Virus record (IMG/VR): IMGVR_UViG_3300037421_000080
Location: 42,086-106,085 of that record
From: a virus
Taxonomy: Duplodnaviria > Heunggongvirae > Uroviricota > Caudoviricetes
Strand: one strand, 5' to 3'
Length of the DNA stretch: 64,000 nt
Shown: positions 22,514 through 42,357 of the stretch, one piece after another
Layout of the letters: every line of letters begins with the position of its first letter
Position numbering within the stretch: position 1 is the first letter of the stretch
Translations under genes and position numbers: made by a program
Notes under the pieces: model-generated
The model's input: only the letters and a program-made list of their open reading frames with translations
The model's database searches: none
What the model was told of the DNA's origin: nothing

Positions 22514-23371
22514 CTAATAGCACGCCGTGTCTACCACTTCCCCACCAGCCCTCGTGCTGAGAGGGATCGTAGCTGCTGCTCCTCTATATCCTATCCATCG
22601 TACTGACCCATCCACAAAGGCCCAATTCCCGCCATCTCTATGTGGGCTCCAGAAGTGGGTAGAAGCGCAGGGATCCTCGTACTCCCCAGGTCCGTACACA
22701 TTAGGACCGGGACATGGCCCGTAAATGGGCACGTTGCTCTGGGTCGCCATCAGGTTATCGTAATCGCTGAAGGCCCACCAGCCCCAATACAGCTCCGGAG
22801 AAGGCGGTCTCTCGCCGATCATCAGAGTGGTTGAGGCACCGTCCCTCACATCCAGCAGCCTGATCCCCTTCGCCAGACTGGTATCAAATGCTCCGTTCGT
22901 TGGAGTAGCATCGCAGTTCATCGTTGTGCCCACCACACCGCAGTAACTAGTCATTCCAAACGTGCCTGTCTCCGCCCAGCTCGTTCCAGAGAAGCCGGTC
23001 ACCAGATCACGCGGATCGCTGGGGCACAGGAGCAGTGGGATCGCATTGCCGGAGAAGACCATGAAGGATACGTCATCCAGAGTGTAGTCCTGGAGATCCT
23101 TTTGGTCGATGAAGGGCAGGAGCCTCCACATCCAGCCCCGCCTATCGGTGAAGAAGCCTGGGTCGTCCCTTGCTGGCGGAAAGTAGCTGAACTGGTCGTG
23201 ATAGGCGTGAACGGCCATTGCGAGCTGCTTCATGCTGCTTTGGCAGGTGCAGCGGTTGGCTGCTTCCCGTATCTTCTGGACGGCAGGCAGGAGCAGGCCG
23301 ATCAGGATCGCTATGATGGCGATGGAGACGAGAAGCTCGAATATCGTGAAGGCAGGTCGAAGGATAGGCAT
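22514..23371 (-). CDS. DUF1559 / prepilin-type N-terminal methylation-domain protein (Planctomycetes H-X9-DG family)
   Basis: N-term FTIFELLVSIAIIAILIGLLLPAVQKIREAANR = class III signal/pseudopilin helix. C-term H..HRDGGNWAFVDGSVRWI = H-X9-DG motif. Confidence 0.75.
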   Translation of the reverse strand: MPILRPAFTIFELLVSIAIIAILIGLLLPAVQKIREAANRCTCQSSMKQLAMAVHAYHDQFSYFPPARDDPGFFTDRRGWMWRLLPFIDQKDLQDYTLDDVSFMVFSGNAIPLLLCPSDPRDLVTGFSGTSWAETGTFGMTSYCGVVGTTMNCDATPTNGAFDTSLAKGIRLLDVRDGASTTLMIGERPPSPELYWGWWAFSDYDNLMATQSNVPIYGPCPGPNVYGPGEYEDPCASTHFWSPHRDGGNWAFVDGSVRWIGYRGAAATIPLSTRAGGEVVDTACY

Positions 23372-24274: not shown

Positions 24275-25924
24275 TTATTCAACTGCAAAGTTCGAGATCA
24301 CAGTTGGCGTATCCGTGGAGAAACCTACACAATCAAGCATCCCCGAGTCGGATGGATCCGCCAGGGAGAATCCGTTGGAGGTCATGCCCACGACTACCAG
24401 CTTGGCCGGAATCCCCATCTTCTGGCGATACTGGTCCAATGCTTGGACTGGTTGGATTTCACCGGCCCATGTCTCGCTATCGGTGTAGATGCAGAACACA
24501 TCCACCTTCAGCTTCTGGTCCATCGCGTAGAGCATCGGTAGGGCGCAGTCGGTCCCGCCCATCGGTAGGGCAGCCATCGCCCGGCAAACATCGTCCAGCC
24601 GTTGGCGCGGGGAGATCGGCAGCGTGGTGATTCCGTTGTTGTACCCCATGCTGGAATACTGGCCCCGGCCCCCGTTGCGGCACCAGCCGTTGCTGGTGAA
24701 TGCGACGAAGGCGTGCTGGGGCTCCACCGCCGCAGTCACCAGGGCCATCGCCCCGCTGGCGACGCGGGCGCTCAGGAAAGTTCCGGCGATATGAGATCCT
24801 TCCATCGACCCGGAGACATCTAGGGCCAGCAGCCACCGCTTATTGGTGGGCTCTACAGAATCGAACGCCAGGTAAAAGGCGCCGTCTAGGGCGTCCACTA
24901 CCTGGGCCACTGGGCTCCATGTGTTCTGCCCCTTCTCTCCCCGGCCCTGAGCATAGGTTTTCAACGCCAAGAGAAGAGCCATCGGATGGACGCGGGCCTT
25001 GCGAATCCACTCCTTGTTTGACAGAGAGGAAACCACCTTGGCGGTCCCATCGGAGAGCGGATCCAGCAGACCAACTCGCGTCATGGTTGCCAGGTTGCGA
25101 ACCAGGGCCGTCAGGGGCATCTTCTCCAGCAAGGCTTCCCAGACGCTGGCTTCCGTCAGAAACTGCGTCGGGATGCACTCGCGGGGCAAGTTGTATTCCC
25201 GGATTAGCTTGCAGATCTCTTTCTTGTCCTTGGAGCGCTTGGCCTTTTCGAATGCCCAAATGATCTTGAGGGCATCTTCCGGATGCTCCTCCTCCCCGAT
25301 TCTCTCCCAGCCCTTGACTGCCCAGTGGAAGATGGAGTTCATCGGTTCGTTTGCCTGAGCATGGCAGAGGCGCAGAAGATCTCGATGGCTCCAGCCGTTG
25401 CGATTCTGGTACTTTACGACTCCATAGGCCAATTTATCCGGAGCCTGGGACGTGTACCATCCAGCGACCATCGAACGCAGGGAGCGTCCCCAGCCCCGGA
25501 AGTTCTGGACGGCCTCACAGAACTGGAAGATATGGGTTCCAATGCGGCAGATCTTCGGCAGAGCCTCCGCTACTCCGAACGTAGCTGCCTTTTTGTGGCC
25601 TGCTGCCATCGCCAGGGCGAAGATAGCTGGATCGTTTTTGGGGGCTTTGCCTCCATCGCTAATCTCCACGATCCGTTTGACAACGCGAGCTCCGTCTTCG
25701 TCGAGTAGCTTCTGGACGACCTTGGCGTTTTCGATGGTGAGCTTCTTCTCGGAAGCATAGAAGCTACCTTGGCTCGCGCCCAAAATGAGGAAGCGATCCA
25801 ACCGCTTCCAATCATCGACGGCGAAGGAGTAGCCCCCGGCCGAGTTCTGGACCATCGGCTTTCCCGGGATCGGCTCCGACTGAGGAGTAACGCGGGTGGA
25901 GAAGTGCTTGCTGTAAACGGTCAT
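24275..25924 (-). CDS. rsr: Ro60-like (Rsr) TROVE + vWA/MIDAS protein
   Basis: N-terminal TROVE block MVQNSAGGYSFAVDDWKRLDRFLILGASQGSFYASEK..VVKRIVEIS..PKNDPAIFALAMAA. C-terminal vWA with DVSGSMEG MIDAS. Start chosen at ATG 25924 (AAGGAGG SD) rather than the upstream in-frame Met. Confidence 0.75.
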   Translation of the reverse strand: MTVYSKHFSTRVTPQSEPIPGKPMVQNSAGGYSFAVDDWKRLDRFLILGASQGSFYASEKKLTIENAKVVQKLLDEDGARVVKRIVEISDGGKAPKNDPAIFALAMAAGHKKAATFGVAEALPKICRIGTHIFQFCEAVQNFRGWGRSLRSMVAGWYTSQAPDKLAYGVVKYQNRNGWSHRDLLRLCHAQANEPMNSIFHWAVKGWERIGEEEHPEDALKIIWAFEKAKRSKDKKEICKLIREYNLPRECIPTQFLTEASVWEALLEKMPLTALVRNLATMTRVGLLDPLSDGTAKVVSSLSNKEWIRKARVHPMALLLALKTYAQGRGEKGQNTWSPVAQVVDALDGAFYLAFDSVEPTNKRWLLALDVSGSMEGSHIAGTFLSARVASGAMALVTAAVEPQHAFVAFTSNGWCRNGGRGQYSSMGYNNGITTLPISPRQRLDDVCRAMAALPMGGTDCALPMLYAMDQKLKVDVFCIYTDSETWAGEIQPVQALDQYRQKMGIPAKLVVVGMTSNGFSLADPSDSGMLDCVGFSTDTPTVISNFAVE

Positions 25925-25968
25925 GCTAGCCTCCTTCGGCTGTAAAAGGAGAAAGAGAAGTATTCCCA

Positions 25969-26260
25969 TGGACAAAAACTTGTATCAAGGGGGTATCTTA
26001 ACAGGATAACCTTGACAACAAACGGCCCATAGGGAATGTCAAAAAGCGAGGACAAGTTTTTGCAATGGGGTACATTTTAGCAGATAACCCATTACTCCGG
26101 CCCTCACGAATACGCGATCAAATAGTGCGGACAAAAATTGCCGTTGGGTATGCCGGGACTTTCACCCAGCTGTCTTTTTGCAGAAGATAACCAACATGCG
26201 TCCGGCCCACACAAGCTTCGTTGTTTCAAAATAGCACGGACAAAAGTAGATGTCCGGTTT
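25969..26260. repeat. tandem array of ~78-bp imperfect repeat units (3 full + 1 partial) with conserved blocks GGACAA..TTG..GGGTA..GATAACC..CGGCCC
   Basis: Units start about 25972, 26052, 26130 and 26238. Noncoding, immediately 5' of rsr on the minus strand. Confidence 0.5.
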
Positions 26261-26291
26261 TACTGTGCAGCCATCACACTCCAGCTAGTTA

Positions 26292-26337
26292 CCCAGCTGC
26301 CGGGAATCGAACCCGGTCTAGTCCTTTTTCAGAGGAG
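26292..26337 (-). ncRNA. tRNA 3'-portion-like element: anticodon-type stem-loop (CU-GAA-AA, Phe-like), 4-nt variable region, T-arm (CCGGG-TTCGATT-CCCGG) and 7-nt 3' acceptor strand, but no 5' acceptor/D-arm partner
   Basis: Manual fold of the minus strand. Candidate attP-type tRNA fragment, tRNA pseudogene or Y-RNA module. Confidence 0.3.
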
Positions 26338-26362
26338 AACAGACACCAAACGGCCCGTGCAT

Positions 26363-26453
26363 TGGGGGCAATTGGGATCGAACCGATAATCCTGGACTTC
26401 GACTCGGTTTCCCGAATAAGCTAGTGTTCAGGTGCCCTACCAGGGCTGCCCCC
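26363..26453 (-). ncRNA. tRNA-like structured RNA candidate (possible Y-RNA-like tRNA mimic)
   Basis: 91 nt with a perfect 7-bp acceptor-like terminal stem GGGGGCA/TGCCCCC, a T-arm (ATCGG-TTCGATC-CCAAT, one C.A mismatch) abutting the 3' strand, a D-like hairpin GCCC-tGGta-GGGC and an internal GAAA tetraloop hairpin. No anticodon arm. Confidence 0.35.
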
Positions 26454-26839
26454 TGAAAATCCTCGGTAACTTTGGAAAGCAGATCCAGCGTAGGTTTTCA
26501 ACAAAGCAAGGCGCAGATAAAGTTCGCCAGTGGGTTTTACTGAATTTCTCTACGCTTTCTCCGATTCCCTCAGTCGCCGAAGTTGGGAAATCTCCCGCTC
26601 ATCAGAGATAATCCACTGACATCGACCCCGTACCTTGCAGTCGCGGTTCTGGGGGATGCTCCCAGCAGTCCAAGGTTATGAGCCTCGAATGGGCACTGGC
26701 CCAACCGCAGTCAATTGGCGGACAAGGTAATGCTAGAGGAGTAACAGCCAAGGTAATCCTCTAACTCCGGCCCGCCAGTATTCCATTATAGTATGACACC
26801 GAAACGGCGAAAAGGTTATGGGTTTCTTTCCTTTTTTTA

Positions 26840-27025
26840 TTATCGGCTCTGCTCCAAATCAGCCAAACGACGGTTGAAGAAAGCGATCGTCGTCTTCAAG
26901 TTCAAGATCTCCATCTGCTTCTTACGCTCTGGGTACAGCAGATTCTCTAGTCTTTGCACTTCCTTCTCCAGCTCGTCGACTCTGCGTCGGTGGGGGCAAT
27001 TAGGATCGCCGCAATCTCCGAACAT
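26840..27025 (-). CDS. small Cys/His zinc-binding protein
   Basis: 61 aa, CGDPNCPH motif. Confidence 0.4.
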   Translation of the reverse strand: MFGDCGDPNCPHRRRVDELEKEVQRLENLLYPERKKQMEILNLKTTIAFFNRRLADLEQSR

Positions 27026-27207
27026 TATAGGTGCTCCGCAGCAAGCTTCTTCTTGCCTTTGTCCGTGATCCGCCAGCTGAGTTCAACTAGTCCTTCCTTA
27101 GCCATGTCTTTTAGATGAGCTAGCTCGATCTCGTCATACTGGTCGTTATCGACACAGCCCTGGCACTCAACCAGTTCTTCAAGAATGGCTAGGTCTTCAA
27201 CTTTCAT
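27025..27207 (-). CDS. small hypothetical protein
   Basis: 60 aa. GGGAGTAGAAAATG SD. Confidence 0.4.
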   Translation of the reverse strand: MKVEDLAILEELVECQGCVDNDQYDEIELAHLKDMAKEGLVELSWRITDKGKKKLAAEHL

Positions 27208-27213
27208 TTTCTA

Positions 27214-27390
27214 CTCCCTCAACAAAAAATTAGGCCATGGCTCGACTACTTTCACGGTGATTTGATAAGTGTTGATAAACGTAGATGAAACCACCACGCA
27301 GTTCGTTTGTTCGAAATCGGCACTAAGAACCTCCATCGCTCCGTCAATCAAATCTCCGAGCAGGATATGAGGCTTCGTGAGGCTGACCAT
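27214..27390 (-). CDS. small hypothetical protein (58 aa; below the ORF-track cutoff)
   Basis: ATG 27390. Stop overlaps the SD of the next gene. Manual translation MVSLTKPHILLGDLIDGAMEVL... Confidence 0.3.
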
Positions 27391-27392
27391 AG

Positions 27393-27950
27393 CTACTCCA
27401 ATTCAACAACGCGGCCCACCTCAAGCCCCGCATCCTGCGTGAACAGGATCATCTGTATCTCCTTCGACAACTCCAGGATCATGGCCCGGAGCCGCTTCCT
27501 GTACATTGATCCATGAAGGTGTACGAAGGGTTCGTCCATTGCAAGGAACTGCCTCCGCTTTGGCTTGGCCAGCTTCAGGCACGCGAGTTGCAACGCAAAA
27601 GCAGCCACGCACACTGTCCCGCCGCCTGCCTCGTTCAGTGGATCCTCCAGCACTAGGTCATCCCGCTTGAACGTGAGCACGGCATCGGTCTTGCCTCTCT
27701 TGCGCTCGAACTTGATCTCAAATTGGTAACTCTCGTCCCCGAAGATCGCCTCCAGGCACTTGGTCACGACGGAGGCGATTTGACGATGGGCGCTGGCCTG
27801 GATCGTCTCGGCTACTCGCTGGGCTATCTCTTGGGCGGACAGGATCGCTACGACCTCGTCCTCTGCCTTCTCAAGCGCCTCCTGCTCACGCTGGGCTGTA
27901 CGCTCAGCGAGGCGGAAATCGGCAAGGAAGGAATCAAGAGGGTTGTTCAA
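27393..27950 (-). CDS. SbcC/Rad50-like ATPase, C-terminal half (coiled coil + signature + Walker B/D-loop)
   Basis: AGGGTVCVAAFALQLACL (degenerate signature, SGG..ALAL.LA) followed by QFLAMDEPF (Walker B). Coiled-coil N-terminus. Confidence 0.55.
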   Translation of the reverse strand: MNNPLDSFLADFRLAERTAQREQEALEKAEDEVVAILSAQEIAQRVAETIQASAHRQIASVVTKCLEAIFGDESYQFEIKFERKRGKTDAVLTFKRDDLVLEDPLNEAGGGTVCVAAFALQLACLKLAKPKRRQFLAMDEPFVHLHGSMYRKRLRAMILELSKEIQMILFTQDAGLEVGRVVELE

Positions 27951-28123
27951 GCTTGGTCTCTTCTATTGCTTTGCCAGCCATATAATCAGAAACAGCGACC
28001 CACGCGGCGACCCATCCAGCGGCAAAAGCGTCCGCCAGATCTGGATAGGTGTCCCGTGGAATGTTCATTAGCCACTTATCGTAGGCTTCGGATTCAGTTT
28101 GTGAGGCCATCGAATTCTCCTAG

Positions 28124-28339
28124 TCAGCACGAGCACCTCCACCCGCCATCTACACTATCGTCCTGCACATCCTCACTCCCCTCTTCCGCCACCATTTTGC
28201 CTCTGATGTACTCTGCGGCAGCCTCCCAGCCAGCAGCGAATGCTTCCTTCCTAATGGTGCTGAATTCTTCGTCCCAATATTCTCCTTCTTTTCCAAACCA
28301 CTTCCGGAACGCCTCTTCCCTCGGTGGGAACTTTGTCAT
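28124..28339 (-). CDS. small hypothetical protein
   Basis: 71 aa. Confidence 0.35.
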   Translation of the reverse strand: MTKFPPREEAFRKWFGKEGEYWDEEFSTIRKEAFAAGWEAAAEYIRGKMVAEEGSEDVQDDSVDGGWRCSC

Positions 28340-28348
28340 TTGAATCCT

Positions 28349-28606
28349 CTAATCGGAATCGCCATCATACTCGTTTGGGTAGAATGGCTCGTCGTGCTCT
28401 GGAAAGTTCGGATCGGAGTAATCGTCCCGATGGTACTCCTCGTAGGCGTCCCTGGCCTCCTTCTTCATCCGCTCGCAGCAGTCTGGAGGGTCGCGAACTA
28501 CTCGACCACAATATGGGCAATAGTCTCGCTCATCCAAAGTTATATCAGGCACGGATCTTCTCCTTCCTCTTGGATCTGAAAGCTTGCTCGGCCTTCTGGT
28601 ACTCAC
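28349..28606 (-). CDS. small zinc-ribbon protein with acidic tail
   Basis: 85 aa. CPYCGR..C motif. Confidence 0.4.
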   Translation of the reverse strand: MSTRRPSKLSDPRGRRRSVPDITLDERDYCPYCGRVVRDPPDCCERMKKEARDAYEEYHRDDYSDPNFPEHDEPFYPNEYDGDSD

Positions 28607-28796
28607 GCTCCAGCTTCTCTTCTTCTTTCTCCAGCTTCTTGTCCAGCTTCTCCGCTGCTTGGAGGTCGGGGCAGTTGAACGTCTCCTTCAATCGAGCAGC
28701 GATCTGGTTGAGCGAGCCCTGGGCCTGGTCCGCCTGCCGCCGCTCCTCCTCCACTTCCTCCTTGAGGCGGAGGAAGGTTTTGGGATCAAGAGGCAT
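28545..28796 (-). CDS. small coiled-coil protein
   Basis: 83 aa. Overlaps the previous gene by about 60 nt, so the start is uncertain. Confidence 0.3.
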   Translation of the reverse strand: MPLDPKTFLRLKEEVEEERRQADQAQGSLNQIAARLKETFNCPDLQAAEKLDKKLEKEEEKLEREYQKAEQAFRSKRKEKIRA

Positions 28797-28896
28797 TTTT
28801 CTTGAGTTTCATACCAGTTGGCCCACACTCCGTTCAGGGATTCGAGAAAGTGGAGGATCGGCTCGTCGGGGATGTCCTTGCATTGGATCGTTTTCT

Positions 28897-29811
28897 TCAC
28901 TTGTCCATGTTCCTTATAACGATCTCCCGGACCCTCTGCGGCACGCCCACCAAGGCTCGTTCCATCGCCTCTCGGAAGTCCAGTACCACGTCCGACAGAC
29001 TCCCCAGCTCCTCGATGAAATCATCCATGCCGGGGGAGGATTCCGGCATCAGCTCTTCCTTCTTGATGAGGATGTCTTTGGAGCAATCCAACTTGTATCT
29101 ACTTATGCTATTATCGGGATGGATAAGCCCCACGCTAGGCTCGTGCTTGTCCTGGTCGGAGCGCCGTCTCATAAGCGATCCGTTATTCCAGATCGTGGCC
29201 CCGCTCCTCAATCTCTGGCTAAAATGGATGTGATTGTCTCCGAATAGAAGCACATCGTACCCCTTGAATTTTTCCAGGCAGTTCTGGAGATTCTGGTCTT
29301 CGCTGGCGTCCTTGTGGTTTGTTCCGACAGTCCAGAGATAGCTGTGGACGACCGCGATCTCCATGACGGCATGGCTGCGATTCTTGAGGGGCGTGATTGG
29401 GAAACCGAACGGGAAGGCGTGAAGGCGGAGCACTCTGCCTCCCTTGGCGGGAACCTCAATGGGCTTGCCGGGGCGGAGGTGGTGGAGAACTCCAGCTTCT
29501 ACTAAGGTCCAGTAGGCGGATCGTTTGAGATCCTTGTAAGAATGGTTGGGCATCTCGTGGTTGCCACAGATGGAATAAGCTTCGGGAAGGTTCTTGATCG
29601 TCCAGTTGATCGTCTCAGCGGGGGTGTTGTATCTATCAAAAACGTCCCCTGCGATCAAGAGATGGCAATCGTGCTCTTGCTTCAGTTTAGCTAGCTCCAG
29701 CAGCGGCCGCTTCATTGCTTCCTGCCAATCGGGCTCCTCCGATCGGGCGATGGGGGGCCTCTGGCAGATGTGCAGGTCGGCGCAGGAAATGGCAAGAATT
29801 TCTTCACTCAT
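28897..29811 (-). CDS. sbcD: SbcD/Mre11-like metallophosphoesterase nuclease
   Basis: Calcineurin-like motifs CADLH (I), AGDVFD (II), GNHE (III), GDNH (V). Confidence 0.75.
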   Translation of the reverse strand: MSEEILAISCADLHICQRPPIARSEEPDWQEAMKRPLLELAKLKQEHDCHLLIAGDVFDRYNTPAETINWTIKNLPEAYSICGNHEMPNHSYKDLKRSAYWTLVEAGVLHHLRPGKPIEVPAKGGRVLRLHAFPFGFPITPLKNRSHAVMEIAVVHSYLWTVGTNHKDASEDQNLQNCLEKFKGYDVLLFGDNHIHFSQRLRSGATIWNNGSLMRRRSDQDKHEPSVGLIHPDNSISRYKLDCSKDILIKKEELMPESSPGMDDFIEELGSLSDVVLDFREAMERALVGVPQRVREIVIRNMDK

Positions 29812-30140
29812 GGATCTTCTGGGTCTATATGGAAGTCAGGTCTAACTACCAGGGGCATTATCCTAGCCCATTTCTTCCTGTCTGCTTTGTGCTTCTCTTG
29901 CAGCTCCGTCAGCGACGTTCCGAGGACTCTCGCAGCGTTCATCATCGCCTCCGCCCAAGTTGTCTCATTACTGGAGTCTTCGCACAAAGCAGCGATGCTG
30001 GCGGCAAGGGCGATATTGGCCTTTTCCAGACCAATGGCACATTCAATGAATTCAATCATATCAATTCTTGGAATCAGCATTAAGGCTCCTGTTAAGCCTT
30101 TTGCTTTTTCCAGGCAGTCTTCAAAACTGGGGATAGTCAT
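29808..30140 (-). CDS. hypothetical protein
   Basis: 110 aa, ATGA-coupled. Confidence 0.45.
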   Translation of the reverse strand: MTIPSFEDCLEKAKGLTGALMLIPRIDMIEFIECAIGLEKANIALAASIAALCEDSSNETTWAEAMMNAARVLGTSLTELQEKHKADRKKWARIMPLVVRPDFHIDPEDP

Positions 30141-30448
30141 AGGTCTAATTCCTTGAGCAGATTATGGACTTCCTCCCAAGTCCTGTTTGGATCGTCGTTC
30201 CATAGGACAAGATGATAAGAATAACTCAGATGGTTCATAATTCGAAGAACTGCCTCCTGCCTCTCTTTAGTCGAAAGCCCATAGCAGTAACTCAGCGCCG
30301 CTGTAAGACAATAAGAATAGGGAGAGTCAGATGAGTTGCAAGTGAGTTCTCCTGTCTTTGTCCTAGCGTTTGTGAATTGCGTCCACTTCTCCGGCTTGTC
30401 TAGCAGTTCCCATGCTTTCACTTCATCCTCCCCCCGCAGATCGGGCAT
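30137..30448 (-). CDS. hypothetical protein
   Basis: Start moved to the internal ATG 30448 to limit overlap with the upstream gene. Confidence 0.4.
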   Translation of the reverse strand: MPDLRGEDEVKAWELLDKPEKWTQFTNARTKTGELTCNSSDSPYSYCLTAALSYCYGLSTKERQEAVLRIMNHLSYSYHLVLWNDDPNRTWEEVHNLLKELDL

Positions 30449-31311
30449 AGTCCGCCGGATTTCTCCTTCAATTCTTTCTCTAGCCCTTCTGCCTCCTGCT
30501 TCCGTGTTAGTATCTCCGTGCTGCATTTATCCCAATATCCCATCAGACTATTCAGTTCATCCCGCTGCCTCCGTACGGCGATTAGCTTCTCCCCTGCCTC
30601 CACCGCTGCTCTACCCAGCTCTCCTATCTCGGCGGCGTCCTCTAGCGTCTCCTTGGCCTTTCTAGCTTGTTCCAATATCCTAGCTAGCTCTTCCCGCCTC
30701 GACGAGCAATCCCGCCACTCCTGTTCCTTCTCCTCCACCTCCTGCCAGTCCCTCTCCGCCTCCAGCACCCAGGCTAGCTCCTCTTTCTGCTTCTCCGCTG
30801 CTTTCAATCTGGACTCAGAGACACTGACGACCGACCGGGCCTGCCTTAGCTCGGAAGCCAGATTCGCCAGGGTAGAGTCGATCAGGGACAGGTTGACGAT
30901 GGCATTAAGCTGGCGGGAGACCTCTCCGGCTGTGTCGCTGAAAAAAAAGCTGGAGGCGTGTTGAGACTGGAAGTTGCCCTCATCGACGTTCAGGAAGTTG
31001 GCTATCTCCTCTGGCACATCCTGCCCAAAAGCTGAAAACGACTTCTCACCGATGTTATAGAGGTTCGCCCCCTTGCCCCGTTCCCTTGTCACCCATTTGC
31101 CATCCGCCTTGAGGGATACGGAGCAGTCCTTGGAGCCCTTGCGGATGAAGGAGTCGCCGGTGGGACGGTTGAGGCATACCCATCGGATAGCACGGAAGAT
31201 GGAACTTTTTCCCCGATCTGACGATCCCGATATGACTGAGATATTTGGATCGAGGGTAAGCTCAAACTTTTTATGCTTCTGGAAGTCTTCGAGGATGAGC
31301 TTCTCGATCAC
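30418..31311 (-). CDS. SbcC/Rad50-like ATPase, N-terminal half (Walker A + coiled coil ending in CxxC zinc hook)
   Basis: ISGSSDRGKSSIFRAIRW (Walker A). Long coiled coil. Terminates ...GGLCPICGGRMK (hook CPIC). Confidence 0.6.
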   Translation of the reverse strand: MIEKLILEDFQKHKKFELTLDPNISVISGSSDRGKSSIFRAIRWVCLNRPTGDSFIRKGSKDCSVSLKADGKWVTRERGKGANLYNIGEKSFSAFGQDVPEEIANFLNVDEGNFQSQHASSFFFSDTAGEVSRQLNAIVNLSLIDSTLANLASELRQARSVVSVSESRLKAAEKQKEELAWVLEAERDWQEVEEKEQEWRDCSSRREELARILEQARKAKETLEDAAEIGELGRAAVEAGEKLIAVRRQRDELNSLMGYWDKCSTEILTRKQEAEGLEKELKEKSGGLCPICGGRMK

Positions 31312-32687
31312 TTGCTTCCCTTGTTTAGCATGGGACTGGGAACTAATAGGGTTGGCATTGGGCCAGTGCCGCCCCCAGTGAAGTACGACTGGGGCAGCTT
31401 CCCATCCCAGGACTTGAGTCGATTCATCTCCAGGTCGATCTGCTTGAGGGTCAGATAGAAGTCCCTGTCCTTGGCGGCACGCTCTAGCTCGTAAGCCTTC
31501 GCCTCGGCAATCAGCTTGATTCCGTCCGCCTCTGCCTTCTTGGTCTTGAGGATAGCATCGGCCTTGCCCTGAGCCTCCAGGATCACCGTTTTGTTCCTCT
31601 CCACCTGAGCATTGGTCCCAGCGATGGCCACGGACTTCTCCTGCTCCGCGTTAAACACCTTGACCATCGTGTCGATGATGGACTTGTCCTTGTAGACAAA
31701 GCCGCCTGTGATGCCGAGGTTGGTTATCATCAGACCTCGCTCTTTGAAGAAGTCGCTCACAGCCTTGGTGGTCTTGTTGATGTGCGGTGTGGCATTCTTT
31801 CGCAGCTCGTCCATCGGCAGGTCAGTGACTTCTAATCCGAACACCGCTTGCAGCTTTGACCGGACCTCTGAGTCCATCACCTTCTCAAGAGAGCCATTGG
31901 GGTAGTTGTGCAGGAACTTCACGGCATCGTCCCGATTCGCTATGCGGGCAGTAATCGTCCAGCCGGTAGAGAACTCTACCTGGTCGGAAGTCATCACCCA
32001 GACAGCCTCGTTTTTGTTCGATGTACCTGTGTTTGGATCGGCAGTCCACTCCCTAGTAACCGGGGACTTGTCCACCTTGATGAGCAGGGCAGCATCCCGC
32101 CATTCCCCGTTGTTGCTAGACCGTCCTAGCTGGACCCATTGCTGGGGGAGCTGGACTTGCTTTGTGTAGACGAGGTTCGCCTTGAGGTACTCCTCATTGC
32201 TGCTGGTCGTCTGCTTTTTGCCGTCCCCGGTGAGGGGCAGCATGAAGGCTTCCTCGTTTGACTTGATGGTCTCCAGTTTTACTGGCTCGAACGGCTTCAC
32301 GCAGCCAGTCCCGGACAGGGGCAGAAGGCCAACGAGGACGAACAACGCGAGTTTCTTGGCCATGTTTCTGATGTCCCCCAGAAAAACGAAGAAGCACATG
32401 AGTGCGACGATACCCCACCCGGTAAGATACAGGTAATTGATCGTTAGATGCTCTCTCATCTGATCTCGCTGAGCAGCTACGCCCTTGCTCTCATCTAGCT
32501 GTTGCAAGGATCTCTCCGTCCTGTCCACTTGCTGGTCCTGCAAGTACAGGAGAGAGCCAACGGCATAGCCTGCGACCAGCACTATGCAGATAACGAACTT
32601 CTGCCAGTTTTCTACGAAGTAGATCATTGTTCCACCATCTTTCTGACTTGATTCAAAGCACAGTACCAGCCAACTGGCACGTTGCAA
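31308..32687 (-). CDS. SPFH/Band-7 domain membrane protein (possibly an N-terminal TM protein + lipoprotein fused in one ORF)
   Basis: Internal signal-peptide-like MAKKLALFVLVGLLPLSGTGC. C-terminal HflK/C-like A/E/K-rich helix. Confidence 0.5.
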   Translation of the reverse strand: MQRASWLVLCFESSQKDGGTMIYFVENWQKFVICIVLVAGYAVGSLLYLQDQQVDRTERSLQQLDESKGVAAQRDQMREHLTINYLYLTGWGIVALMCFFVFLGDIRNMAKKLALFVLVGLLPLSGTGCVKPFEPVKLETIKSNEEAFMLPLTGDGKKQTTSSNEEYLKANLVYTKQVQLPQQWVQLGRSSNNGEWRDAALLIKVDKSPVTREWTADPNTGTSNKNEAVWVMTSDQVEFSTGWTITARIANRDDAVKFLHNYPNGSLEKVMDSEVRSKLQAVFGLEVTDLPMDELRKNATPHINKTTKAVSDFFKERGLMITNLGITGGFVYKDKSIIDTMVKVFNAEQEKSVAIAGTNAQVERNKTVILEAQGKADAILKTKKAEADGIKLIAEAKAYELERAAKDRDFYLTLKQIDLEMNRLKSWDGKLPQSYFTGGGTGPMPTLLVPSPMLNKGSK

Positions 32688-36250: not shown

Positions 36251-36321
36251 AGGCCCCCAGAAGGATTTGAACCCTCGCATCCTGGATACAAGCCAGGCGC
36301 TCTACCTCTGAGCTATAGGGG
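36251..36321 (-). tRNA. tRNA-Thr (anticodon UGU)
   Basis: Manual fold. Acceptor GCCCCUA/UGGGGGC 7 bp, D-arm GCUC-AGAGGUA-GAGC, anticodon arm CCUGG-CUUGUAU-CCAGG, variable AUGC, T-arm GAGGG-UUCAAAU-CCUUC, discriminator C. CCA not encoded. Confidence 0.8.
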
Positions 36322-36397
36322 CAAACAGCGGAGGCTAGTAACCAGCCGCCCCCGCTGAGTCCTGTACAGACACAATCTGAACAGAGACCGGTTCGTA

Positions 36398-41989: not shown

Positions 41990-42357
41990 TTCTTCTCCTT
42001 GAACAAGTACACCTTGGTCTTGATACCCGCCTTCTTCGCCATCTCGATTGTGGACTTTGTTCCAGGGCTAGTTCCCGACCAGAACGCCACGACGCATCCC
42101 TTCCCCTCCATCATCGCTATCATCTCCGCGTTTCTCACTATCCCAGCTTGCTTGCCCTTCTTCCACTCCGGATGGTGGATTGACTGCATAATCCTTCGCT
42201 CGAAGCACCACTTCTCCGCGAGGTTGTCCGCACCCCTGGCCCCTCCGTGGATCACCAGGATCTTTTTCTTGTCTAGCTTGGAGGTCAAATGGTCCAGCGT
42301 CTTGGCGAGGAAGTCGTAGTCATCGAAGGATCTGGAGCCGCAGACGAGAAGTTTCAT
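41986..42357 (-). CDS. DUF2493 / SLOG-family Rossmann protein
   Basis: MKLLVCGSRSF..ILVIHGGARGADNLAEKW..AGIVRNAEMI..VVAFWSG.SPGT...I..AKKAGI matches DUF2493 throughout. Confidence 0.65.
   Translation of the reverse strand: MKLLVCGSRSFDDYDFLAKTLDHLTSKLDKKKILVIHGGARGADNLAEKWCFERRIMQSIHHPEWKKGKQAGIVRNAEMIAMMEGKGCVVAFWSGTSPGTKSTIEMAKKAGIKTKVYLFKEKK

Follow-up and report, generated by a model that had tools for sequence, protein, structure and literature searches.

Can a Rad50-type ATPase be encoded in nature by more than one gene, or are separately encoded pieces of such a protein simply what is left of a gene that has been broken? The question is raised by a locus of a tailed virus (Caudoviricetes; IMG/VR record IMGVR_UViG_3300037421_000080), in which two open reading frames (ORFs) corresponding to the N- and C-terminal halves of a Rad50/SbcC-like ABC ATPase lie on either side of a gene for an SbcD/Mre11-type nuclease. 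To our knowledge, all Rad50/SbcC and SMC proteins studied so far carry the head and the hook or hinge on one chain, which runs up the arm and back. The stretch of DNA analysed, referred to here as the window, comprises 64,000 nucleotides (nt), from position 42,086 to 106,085 of the record, and all genes of the cassette lie on its minus strand. We consider it very probable that the locus encodes a naturally multi-chain SbcCD-like (Mre11–Rad50 type) DNA-end-processing module of a virulent phage, with a Rad50-like ATPase built from separate polypeptides.

The N-half is encoded by 30418..31311 and is a protein of 297 amino acids (aa) that comprises lobe I of the ATPase head, a long ascending helix and a C-terminal CxxC hook. 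Its P-loop reads GSSDRGKSS, with the Walker A motif GSSDRGKS at residues 29–36 (31204..31227), where G34 and K35 are invariant among 57 homologues and conservation of G29 and S36 is 90% or more, and its Q-loop region, NFQSQH, occupies residues 113–118 (30958..30975; Q115 and Q117 at least 90% conserved). The zinc-hook motif CPICG follows at residues 289–293 (30433..30447), with C289 and C292 invariant and P290 at least 90% conserved, and sits five residues ahead of the stop codon in a C-terminus that reads ...GGLCPICGGRMK*. Profile comparisons matched the protein to AAA_23 in Pfam (5e-10), to the PHROG ‘exonuclease’ (7e-25, covering only positions 5–231 of a 491-position model), to an ‘SbcC-like’ PHROG (4.5e-10) and, as the top NCBIfam match, to Rad50 (2e-12), and its coil and CxxC align to the hook region in the middle of the models Rad50_Halo (318–458 of 883) and sbcc_Staph (397–524 of 1007). 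The AlphaFold model made from the family alignment has a predicted local distance difference test (pLDDT) score of 91 and contains the strands of lobe I, followed by helices 141–178 and 180–284 as assigned by DSSP and then the CxxC tail; in a Foldseek comparison with the PDB its first match is the Rad50 N fragment 1f2u_A (2.4e-7). By its motifs and by this fold match the protein has the Rad50/SbcC N-terminal lobe with Walker A and Q-loop, while the motif and its alignment to Rad50/SbcC hooks place a CxxC, presumably zinc-binding, at the far end of a helical arm.

The C-half, encoded by 27393..27950, is 185 aa long and consists of a descending helix (residues 4–73) and lobe II. It contains AGGGTV at the position of the signature motif, the equivalent GGG lying at residues 109–111 (27618..27626; G110 in 180 of 186 family members, G111 in 181), and FLAMDEPF as Walker B, of which FLAMDE spans residues 135–140 (27531..27548) and D139 and E140 are present in all 186. 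The start codon, TTG at 27950, is the first one past an in-frame stop, so the protein cannot be extended upstream. It matches phrog_15167, an ‘ATPase’ family of stand-alone proteins with 211 positions, at 8.5e-12, and the family profile of 48 relatives aligns over its full length to the C-terminal fragment of Pyrococcus furiosus Rad50, 3qkr_B (query 29–181, E 0.0019), with the stretch from Walker B to the H-loop also aligning with many ABC transporters. In the AlphaFold model (pLDDT 93.7; predicted template modelling score 0.78) helix 4–73 is followed by the strands and helices of lobe II, and Foldseek places the Rad50 chains 5dac_B (2.9e-7), 9a9j_B and 1ii8_B on top, at about 1e-6 to 1e-7, with the SMC head fragment 5h66_B at rank 2. 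Motifs and fold are thereby those of the Rad50/SbcC C-terminal lobe with signature, Walker B and D-loop. Searches with tblastn gave only remote matches for the N-half and no match for the C-half. In one metagenomic C-half relative, P0212 (356 aa), a low-complexity insert of about 170 residues is found between the long helix and the first β-strand.

Between the two halves lies the gene at 28897..29811, which encodes a metallophosphoesterase of 304 aa with profile matches to Metallophos (Pfam, 1.2e-7) and Mre11. When the nuclease family profile, made from 42 relatives, was compared with the PDB, all seven sequence matches were Mre11 chains, at about 1e-3, and the residues of the five calcineurin-like phosphoesterase motifs of Mre11/SbcD, namely DxH, GD, GNH[DE], H and a GHxH-like motif (D12, H14, G55, D56, G83, H85, H156, G191, D192, N193 and H194) are invariant in the 42 sequences. 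The protein ends in a conserved tail that looks helical from its sequence, F..EL..LG...LDF..A....L, in which F279 is at least 90% conserved; in Mre11/SbcD nucleases, the base of the Rad50 coiled coil is bound by a C-terminal helix-loop-helix. The partnership with the ATPase halves is a genetic one, the nuclease gene being found within the cassette in 67 of 67 distinct loci. One related viral contig (L088:7518-8974) has a nuclease gene that seems divided into two ORFs, of 208 and 113 aa and about 490 nt apart, which could reflect an insertion or intron, or a sequencing break.

These assignments agree with the original prediction, made from the window's letters alone, that SbcC/Rad50 is split into N- and C-halves flanking SbcD/Mre11. 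By profiles and folds the halves are complementary lobes; the coordinates and motifs proposed for 30418..31311 (Walker A and a coiled coil ending at the hook) and for 27393..27950 (a coiled coil, the AGGGTV signature and Walker B) are correct; comparison with Rad50/SbcC takes the N-half to Rad50 in NCBIfam and the C-half profile to Rad50 3qkr_B; and the nuclease, with all its metal-binding motifs present, matches only Mre11 among PDB chains.

A further gene, 28545..28796, belongs to the cassette and encodes a conserved helical protein of about 80 aa (83 aa in the window), here called cc80, whose gene follows that of the nuclease and precedes that of the C-half wherever the sequence of a locus extends far enough. 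An alignment of 54 members gives the family consensus ..Y..LK..V......ADRA.GAL......LK.EFGC....EA..LL......F..KW, and from this pattern cc80 appears to form two long helical segments joined by a short loop. It matched nothing in Pfam, PHROG, NCBIfam or the PDB, a word-index homology search returned only cc80 itself, and its profile drew nothing but coiled-coil noise from the PDB (best E 0.011). The idea that cc80 is a copy of either arm was rejected, hhalign comparisons with the N-half and C-half profiles giving probabilities below 5% and detecting no such relationship. It is probably part of the complex.

Considering the question of whether the arrangement is peculiar to the window, the same split was found throughout the family. 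N-half relatives are stand-alone proteins in 62 of 62 cases (294–433 aa), 61 of them with CP[LITV]C a few residues from the C-terminus, and C-half relatives are stand-alone in 118 of 118 (121–233 aa). The tail beyond the CxxC measures 2–42 residues, with a median of 6, and is at most 12 aa long in 106 of 118 sequences; the cut across homologues always falls just past the CxxC, as had been proposed when the split point was equated with the zinc hook. An exhaustive search of 1.84 billion cluster representatives with a hidden Markov model profile of the C-half yielded 4,331 proteins at E<=1e-3 and 1,042 clusters (50% identity) at E<=1e-30. Among the best 150 of these 1,042 representatives, 149 span 169–276 aa, and the remaining one is longer on account of a low-complexity insert inside the C-half and is not a fusion. 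Rosetta-stone fusions, of cc80 with either half or of the N-half with the C-half, were looked for and none was found, the longer outliers being explained by low-complexity tails or inserts. The suggestion that related phages be compared for a split or a fused gene is thus answered by the same split throughout, with no fused member seen.

In IMG/VR a relative of the C-half is encoded on 379 viral contigs, and the family is nearly absent from cellular genomes, with two contigs only, both from metagenome-assembled genomes, among 185,579 species genomes. Gene order was compared in 80 loci from IMG/VR and three from ENA and JGI, and gaps were measured over 67 distinct loci. In every sampled locus with enough upstream sequence the N-half, nuclease, cc80 and C-half genes lie on the same strand and in the same order, and they are tightly packed: the median gap is −7 nt between N-half and nuclease (at most 30 nt in 45 of 67 loci), 164 nt between nuclease and cc80 (at most 30 nt in 29 of 67) and 2 nt between cc80 and C-half (at most 30 nt in 37 of 67). 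Pairwise identities across the 67 loci are just 35–55%, and the GK of Walker A, the DE of Walker B and the nuclease motifs are invariant, a sign of selection on the catalytic residues.

More distant examples come from cultured phages. A DNA search with 27000..32000 of the window gave no match among cultured phages; at the protein level, the N-halves of three Bacillus phages match the N-half family at 2e-49, 2e-50 (0305phi8-36 gp8) and 5e-53, and two Bacillus phage C-halves match at 1e-25 and 2e-27 (0305phi8-36 gp5). Phage phBC6A51 encodes an N-half, BC1852 (518 aa, ending in CPLC), a small protein, BC1854 (77 aa), and a C-half, BC1855 (211 aa, labelled ‘Chromosome segregation ATPases’), with SbcD downstream. 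The corresponding proteins of vB_BboS-125 are gp32, the small gp34 (78 aa) and gp35, with an AP2-domain protein between the halves, and those of 0305phi8-36 are gp8, the small and helical gp7 (92 aa) and gp5, the nuclease being fused ahead of the N-half. In Tunturiibacter phage Tunturi_5 an N-half that ends in CGKCG is followed by a 97-aa protein of the same small helical type; gp179 of this phage was considered as a C-half and rejected, since by eye it resembles a secreted protein. The small proteins of the cultured phages show, by eye, a helix, a G-x-(T/P) turn and a second helix, and compare with cc80 at E 0.03–0.15 in tiny databases, which is suggestive of proteins analogous, and possibly homologous, to cc80. 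Given that these distant phages have the same arrangement, the split is both family-wide and ancient. The AP2-domain protein of vB_BboS-125, gp33 (L007:6392-6964), whose gene separates that of the N-half from that of the small helical protein, is possibly a homing endonuclease, and would then be in keeping with a traffic of endonucleases at the site of the split.

The geometry of the arm is less simple than the division into two halves would imply. In the window about 144 helical arm residues belong to the N-half and about 70 to the C-half, and the N arm measures 143 residues from the ID motif to the CxxC. Across the family, N-arm lengths fall into classes of about 143 (36 sequences), 185 (65), 225 (7) and 260 (1) residues, in steps of about 42 aa, or six heptads, the additional modules containing a Pro loop; in the Bacillus phages the N arm reaches about 310–340 residues, and the N-halves of the Bacillus and Tunturiibacter phages contain tandem ‘ERLxVP’ or ‘LxVPD’ modules. 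Since the arms are unequal and only the N arm varies in length, a simple one-to-one antiparallel pairing of the whole arm cannot hold in general, and with a helix fixed at about 70 residues the C-half can cover only the proximal half of the arm. The single chain with ascending and descending helices of equal length that is typical of Rad50/SbcC is therefore not what is seen here; the two helices are encoded by separate genes and differ twofold in length. The original prediction of a natural two-polypeptide Rad50 stands in so far as the split is natural and conserved, while its proposal of one arm per half was too simple and cc80 was overlooked.

Several observations weigh against regarding the cassette as a Rad50-type enzyme of this kind. 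The fold of the N lobe scores equally well with SMC and RecF as with Rad50, and the best PADLOC match of the N-half is the SMC-like LmuB protein of Lamassu systems (2.1e-14, residues 2–294). The H-loop histidine of Rad50/SbcC is replaced in the window by Gln172 (27435..27437) and is absent in about a third of the C-half family (His in 127 of 186 members, Asp in 41, Gln in 6, the window included, Asn in 6 and Gly in 5); given this loss, the enzyme may turn over ATP slowly or by another catalytic route. The N arm varies by its steps of about 42 aa against a constant length of the C-half helix (about 70 residues) and of cc80 (about 80), and cc80 itself is without detectable homology to anything in the searches described above. 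What supports the Rad50/SbcC label is the partner nuclease, together with the sequence profiles and the hook motif.

The first of these points could be taken to mean that the cassette is an SMC-like system of another kind, Lamassu/LmuB-like or some other ABC-ATPase system for defence, counter-defence or DNA sensing, and not a repair SbcCD. The LmuB match covers both head and arm, the N-half shares with LmuB an SMC/Rad50-like head fold, and the C-half has a PADLOC match of its own, to mad3 (2.9e-8). However, the C-half has no match to the LmuB models at E<=0.01, a search with PADLOC found no partner of the LmuA (effector) or LmuC (kleisin-like) type, and the cassette does not have the make-up of a Lamassu operon or a defence-island setting. 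In place of such partners it has an obligatory Mre11/SbcD-type phosphoesterase, which is matched by no PADLOC defence model, and PHROG and NCBIfam group the N-half with phage exonuclease/SbcC and Rad50, its terminal CxxC aligning with Rad50/SbcC hooks. The setting, too, is viral and related to recombination: the cassette lies in a recombination/replication block with genes for a PDDEXK nuclease, a RecA-like protein, PolA and a clamp loader, and a related locus (L001) has the same RecA and PDDEXK neighbours. The near absence of the family from cellular genomes, with its two loci, also argues against a defence system, and we regard this explanation as unlikely.

A smaller chance still is given to the idea that the two halves do not pair, the N-half being, for example, a head-less hook protein and the C-half a degenerate ATPase-like regulator, each acting alone or with other partners. 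The mismatch in arm lengths would be accommodated by this; but the N-half carries Walker A and the C-half carries Walker B and the signature, so neither can make an ATP site alone, and neither half by itself would be able to bind and hydrolyse ATP. The halves also co-occur strictly and in fixed order, and the folds predicted for them add up to a single domain.

The possibility that the halves are remnants of a disrupted gene had been raised together with the prediction. For an sbcC gene recently broken by insertions and no longer functional the window offers some grounds, in the several small non-conserved ORFs between the pieces and in the exchange of the H-loop His for Gln. Both ORFs are nevertheless intact, the same split is seen in the 67 distinct loci with catalytic residues invariant, the four genes abut without inserts in many of these loci, and the C-half exists as a stand-alone protein in more than 1,000 clusters at 50% identity, with none of the best 150 fused. 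Such low identities combined with invariant catalytic residues in a recurring split exclude recent pseudogenisation, and a broken gene has next to no claim on these data; from the conservation observed, the split is a working design. Equally hard to credit is a joining of the halves by a split intein, ribosomal bypass or RNA splicing into a normal single-chain Rad50: phages do use inteins, introns and translational bypass in replication genes, but the interval between the halves is about 2.5 kb and includes a conserved, separately needed nuclease gene and other ORFs, and there is no room for intein halves, because the N-half ends 5 aa past the CxxC and the C-half begins with the earliest start codon that an in-frame stop allows, with homologues having the same short termini.

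Returning to a multi-chain SbcCD-like module as the preferred reading, what has been observed is the homology of the parts, a conserved split, the order of the genes and their motifs, and beyond this we infer a physical assembly, zinc binding, a stoichiometry and a role for the small protein. The N-half would supply Walker A, the Q-loop, the ascending arm helix and the terminal CxxC zinc hook, and the C-half would bring in the descending helix, the signature, Walker B and the D-loop region. An antiparallel pairing of the N-half helix, in its proximal part, with the 70-residue helix of the C-half would unite lobes I and II as one ABC head, by analogy with the co-expressed Rad50 N and C fragments used in crystallography, and two such heads would sandwich two ATP molecules. 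At the other end, two terminal CxxC motifs would share one Zn2+ and thus tie the distal arms, while the nuclease would dock on the heads and the base of the arm by means of its own helical C-terminal tail. We envisage cc80 as a stoichiometric third subunit, translationally coupled to the C-half, which would pack either on the distal arm, which lacks a partner strand joined to it covalently, or where the N- and C-halves meet. DNA ends, hairpins or concatemer junctions would be the substrates of the whole complex, as they are for T4 gp46/47 and SbcCD.

A more specific form of this proposal, which we put forward tentatively and hold to be possible but on balance doubtful, is an arm of three chains, in which cc80 replaces the missing distal descending strand, or else joins the ends of two N arms in a four-helix rod that has the Zn(Cys)4 hook as its cap. 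In the short class the arithmetic is suggestive, the ascending helix of 144 aa being matched by the 70 aa of the C-half helix and the roughly 75 helical residues of cc80 taken together, and the distal arm of about 74 residues equalling the helical length of cc80. The N-half, cc80 and C-half of the window together amount to 297 + 83 + 185 = 565 aa, which is close to the length of T4 gp46. As a general rule, ‘cc80 + C arm = N arm’ was rejected by a test of length covariation, holding for the short class only and failing in the longer classes and in the Bacillus phages. If the three-chain arm were true, the molecule would be a ring with non-covalent seams at the hook and in mid-arm, able to open or to assemble around DNA there, and the N-arm steps of about 42 aa would be self-contained inserts or extensions of a parallel N–N stalk.

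The enzyme class and the likely role of the module are familiar. With SbcCD and T4 gp46/gp47 it shares an ABC ATPase with Walker A in the N-terminal part and signature and Walker B in the C-terminal part, a helical arm with a CPxCG hook, a phosphoesterase with the five Mre11/SbcD motifs and a place in a phage recombination/replication module. It differs in that the ATPase is not one chain and is cut 2–42 residues past the hook, the nuclease gene lies between the pieces, a conserved helical protein of 80 aa is added, the arm is short (about 144 aa in the window) and quantised in length across the family, and the H-loop His is not conserved. In Escherichia coli the gene order is sbcD–sbcC (PMC5105663).

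That a Rad50 head can form from two polypeptides is known from the PDB entries 1F2U, 1II8 and 3QKR. These engineered two-chain forms of P. furiosus Rad50 are the best structural matches of the phage proteins, with the N-half corresponding to chain 1f2u_A and the C-half to chains 1ii8_B, 3qkr_B and 9a9j_B. They are laboratory truncations from which the arm and hook were deleted, whereas the phage split is natural and conserved and leaves the N chain with the hook and a complete ascending arm.

Fusions of Mre11 and Rad50 have been described by Yoshida, Claverie and Ogata in 2011 for Mimivirus R555 and for gp8 of Bacillus phage 0305phi8-36 (PMC3175470); according to these authors, one of the P-loop segments ‘was not observed’ in the 0305phi8-36 protein, and a separate gene for this segment was not reported. 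By its profile match to the C-half family, the segment missing from gp8 is encoded separately, as gp5. In 0305phi8-36 the nuclease is fused upstream of the N-half, whereas in the window it is encoded between the halves. Another precedent is the NrdA protein of Aeromonas phage Aeh1, split by a homing endonuclease and discussed under the heading of ‘genes in pieces’ (PMC3045599). Here, too, an essential phage enzyme is made as two polypeptides that reassemble non-covalently, as we would expect of the Rad50 halves; unlike the NrdA split, which is specific to a lineage, that of Rad50 is ancient and found across the family, the conserved genes in between encode partners of the enzyme itself, and no endonuclease gene lies between the halves in the window.

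Full-text searches, which do not extend to literature available by subscription only, turned up no account of an SbcC or Rad50 that is split or bipartite; in papers on SPN3US and the jumbo phages, sbcC and sbcD are mentioned only as separated genes. A multi-chain Rad50/SbcC that is natural and widespread, is cut at the zinc hook and has an extra conserved subunit would be new.

The window carries a version of the cassette with extra small ORFs inserted at the junctions. Five small genes had been predicted between the halves; six ORFs are in fact counted there, of which one, 28545..28796, is the conserved cc80. Two of the others, a 110-aa ORF (29808..30140) and a DUF6197 ORF (30137..30526; DUF6197 at 2.9e-10), are inserted between the N-half and the nuclease and lie outside the conserved cassette. 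Read from its first ATG at 30526, the DUF6197 ORF overlaps the last 109 nt of the N-half gene (30418..30526), and as the Pfam match begins only at residue 38 the true start is probably further downstream. The remaining three, of 85 aa (28349..28606), 71 aa (28124..28339) and 58 aa (27934..28110), are inserted between cc80 and the C-half and are not conserved in the related loci compared; none of these ORFs in 27934..28606 has a match among the genes of the related loci L001 and L003. The 85-aa ORF has a Cys cluster, CPYCGRVVRDPPDCCERM, overlaps the end of cc80 by 62 nt and is without a family match. A paralogy of the 71-aa and 58-aa ORFs was considered, and their similarity, with 41% identity over 29 aa and E 4.1, falls short of significance.

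Some neighbouring features of the window were recorded as well. A single tRNA-Thr (TGT) gene lies within the replication/recombination block at 36252..36322 on the minus strand. At 24275..25975, also on the minus strand, the phage encodes an Rsr/Ro60 orthologue (NCBIfam RNA-bind_Rsr, E 1.4e-151), which is adjoined by an ORF-poor stretch of about 850 nt (25976..26840). Within this stretch there are sub-threshold Rfam matches to nematode sbRNA on the same strand, at 26715..26779 (32.1 bits, E 1.8e-4) and 26046..26108, and a match to a tRNA-like fragment of tmRNA at 26265..26316. Nematode sbRNAs are homologues of Y RNA, and the matches mark candidate RNAs of the Y-RNA/YrlA-like type. A DUF1559/SBP_bac_10 protein (6.8e-31) is encoded at 22514..23371, again on the minus strand; this family has undergone a large expansion in Planctomycetota, and may thus give a clue to the host.

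Two mechanistic questions about proteins of this class are how a signal travels along the arm and whether covalent continuity is needed at its apex. A conserved cut at the hook would surprise specialists, and a large natural family that cuts the chain at this point, leaves the hook at a free C-terminal end and has an additional small, obligatory helical subunit offers a ready-made system in which to ask what the arm and hook must do, with small, separately expressible parts that suit structural work. For the phages themselves, thousands of metagenomic genes and some from cultured phages, labelled until now as ‘exonuclease’, ‘chromosome segregation ATPase’ or ‘hypothetical’, would be recognised as belonging to one SbcCD-like machine.

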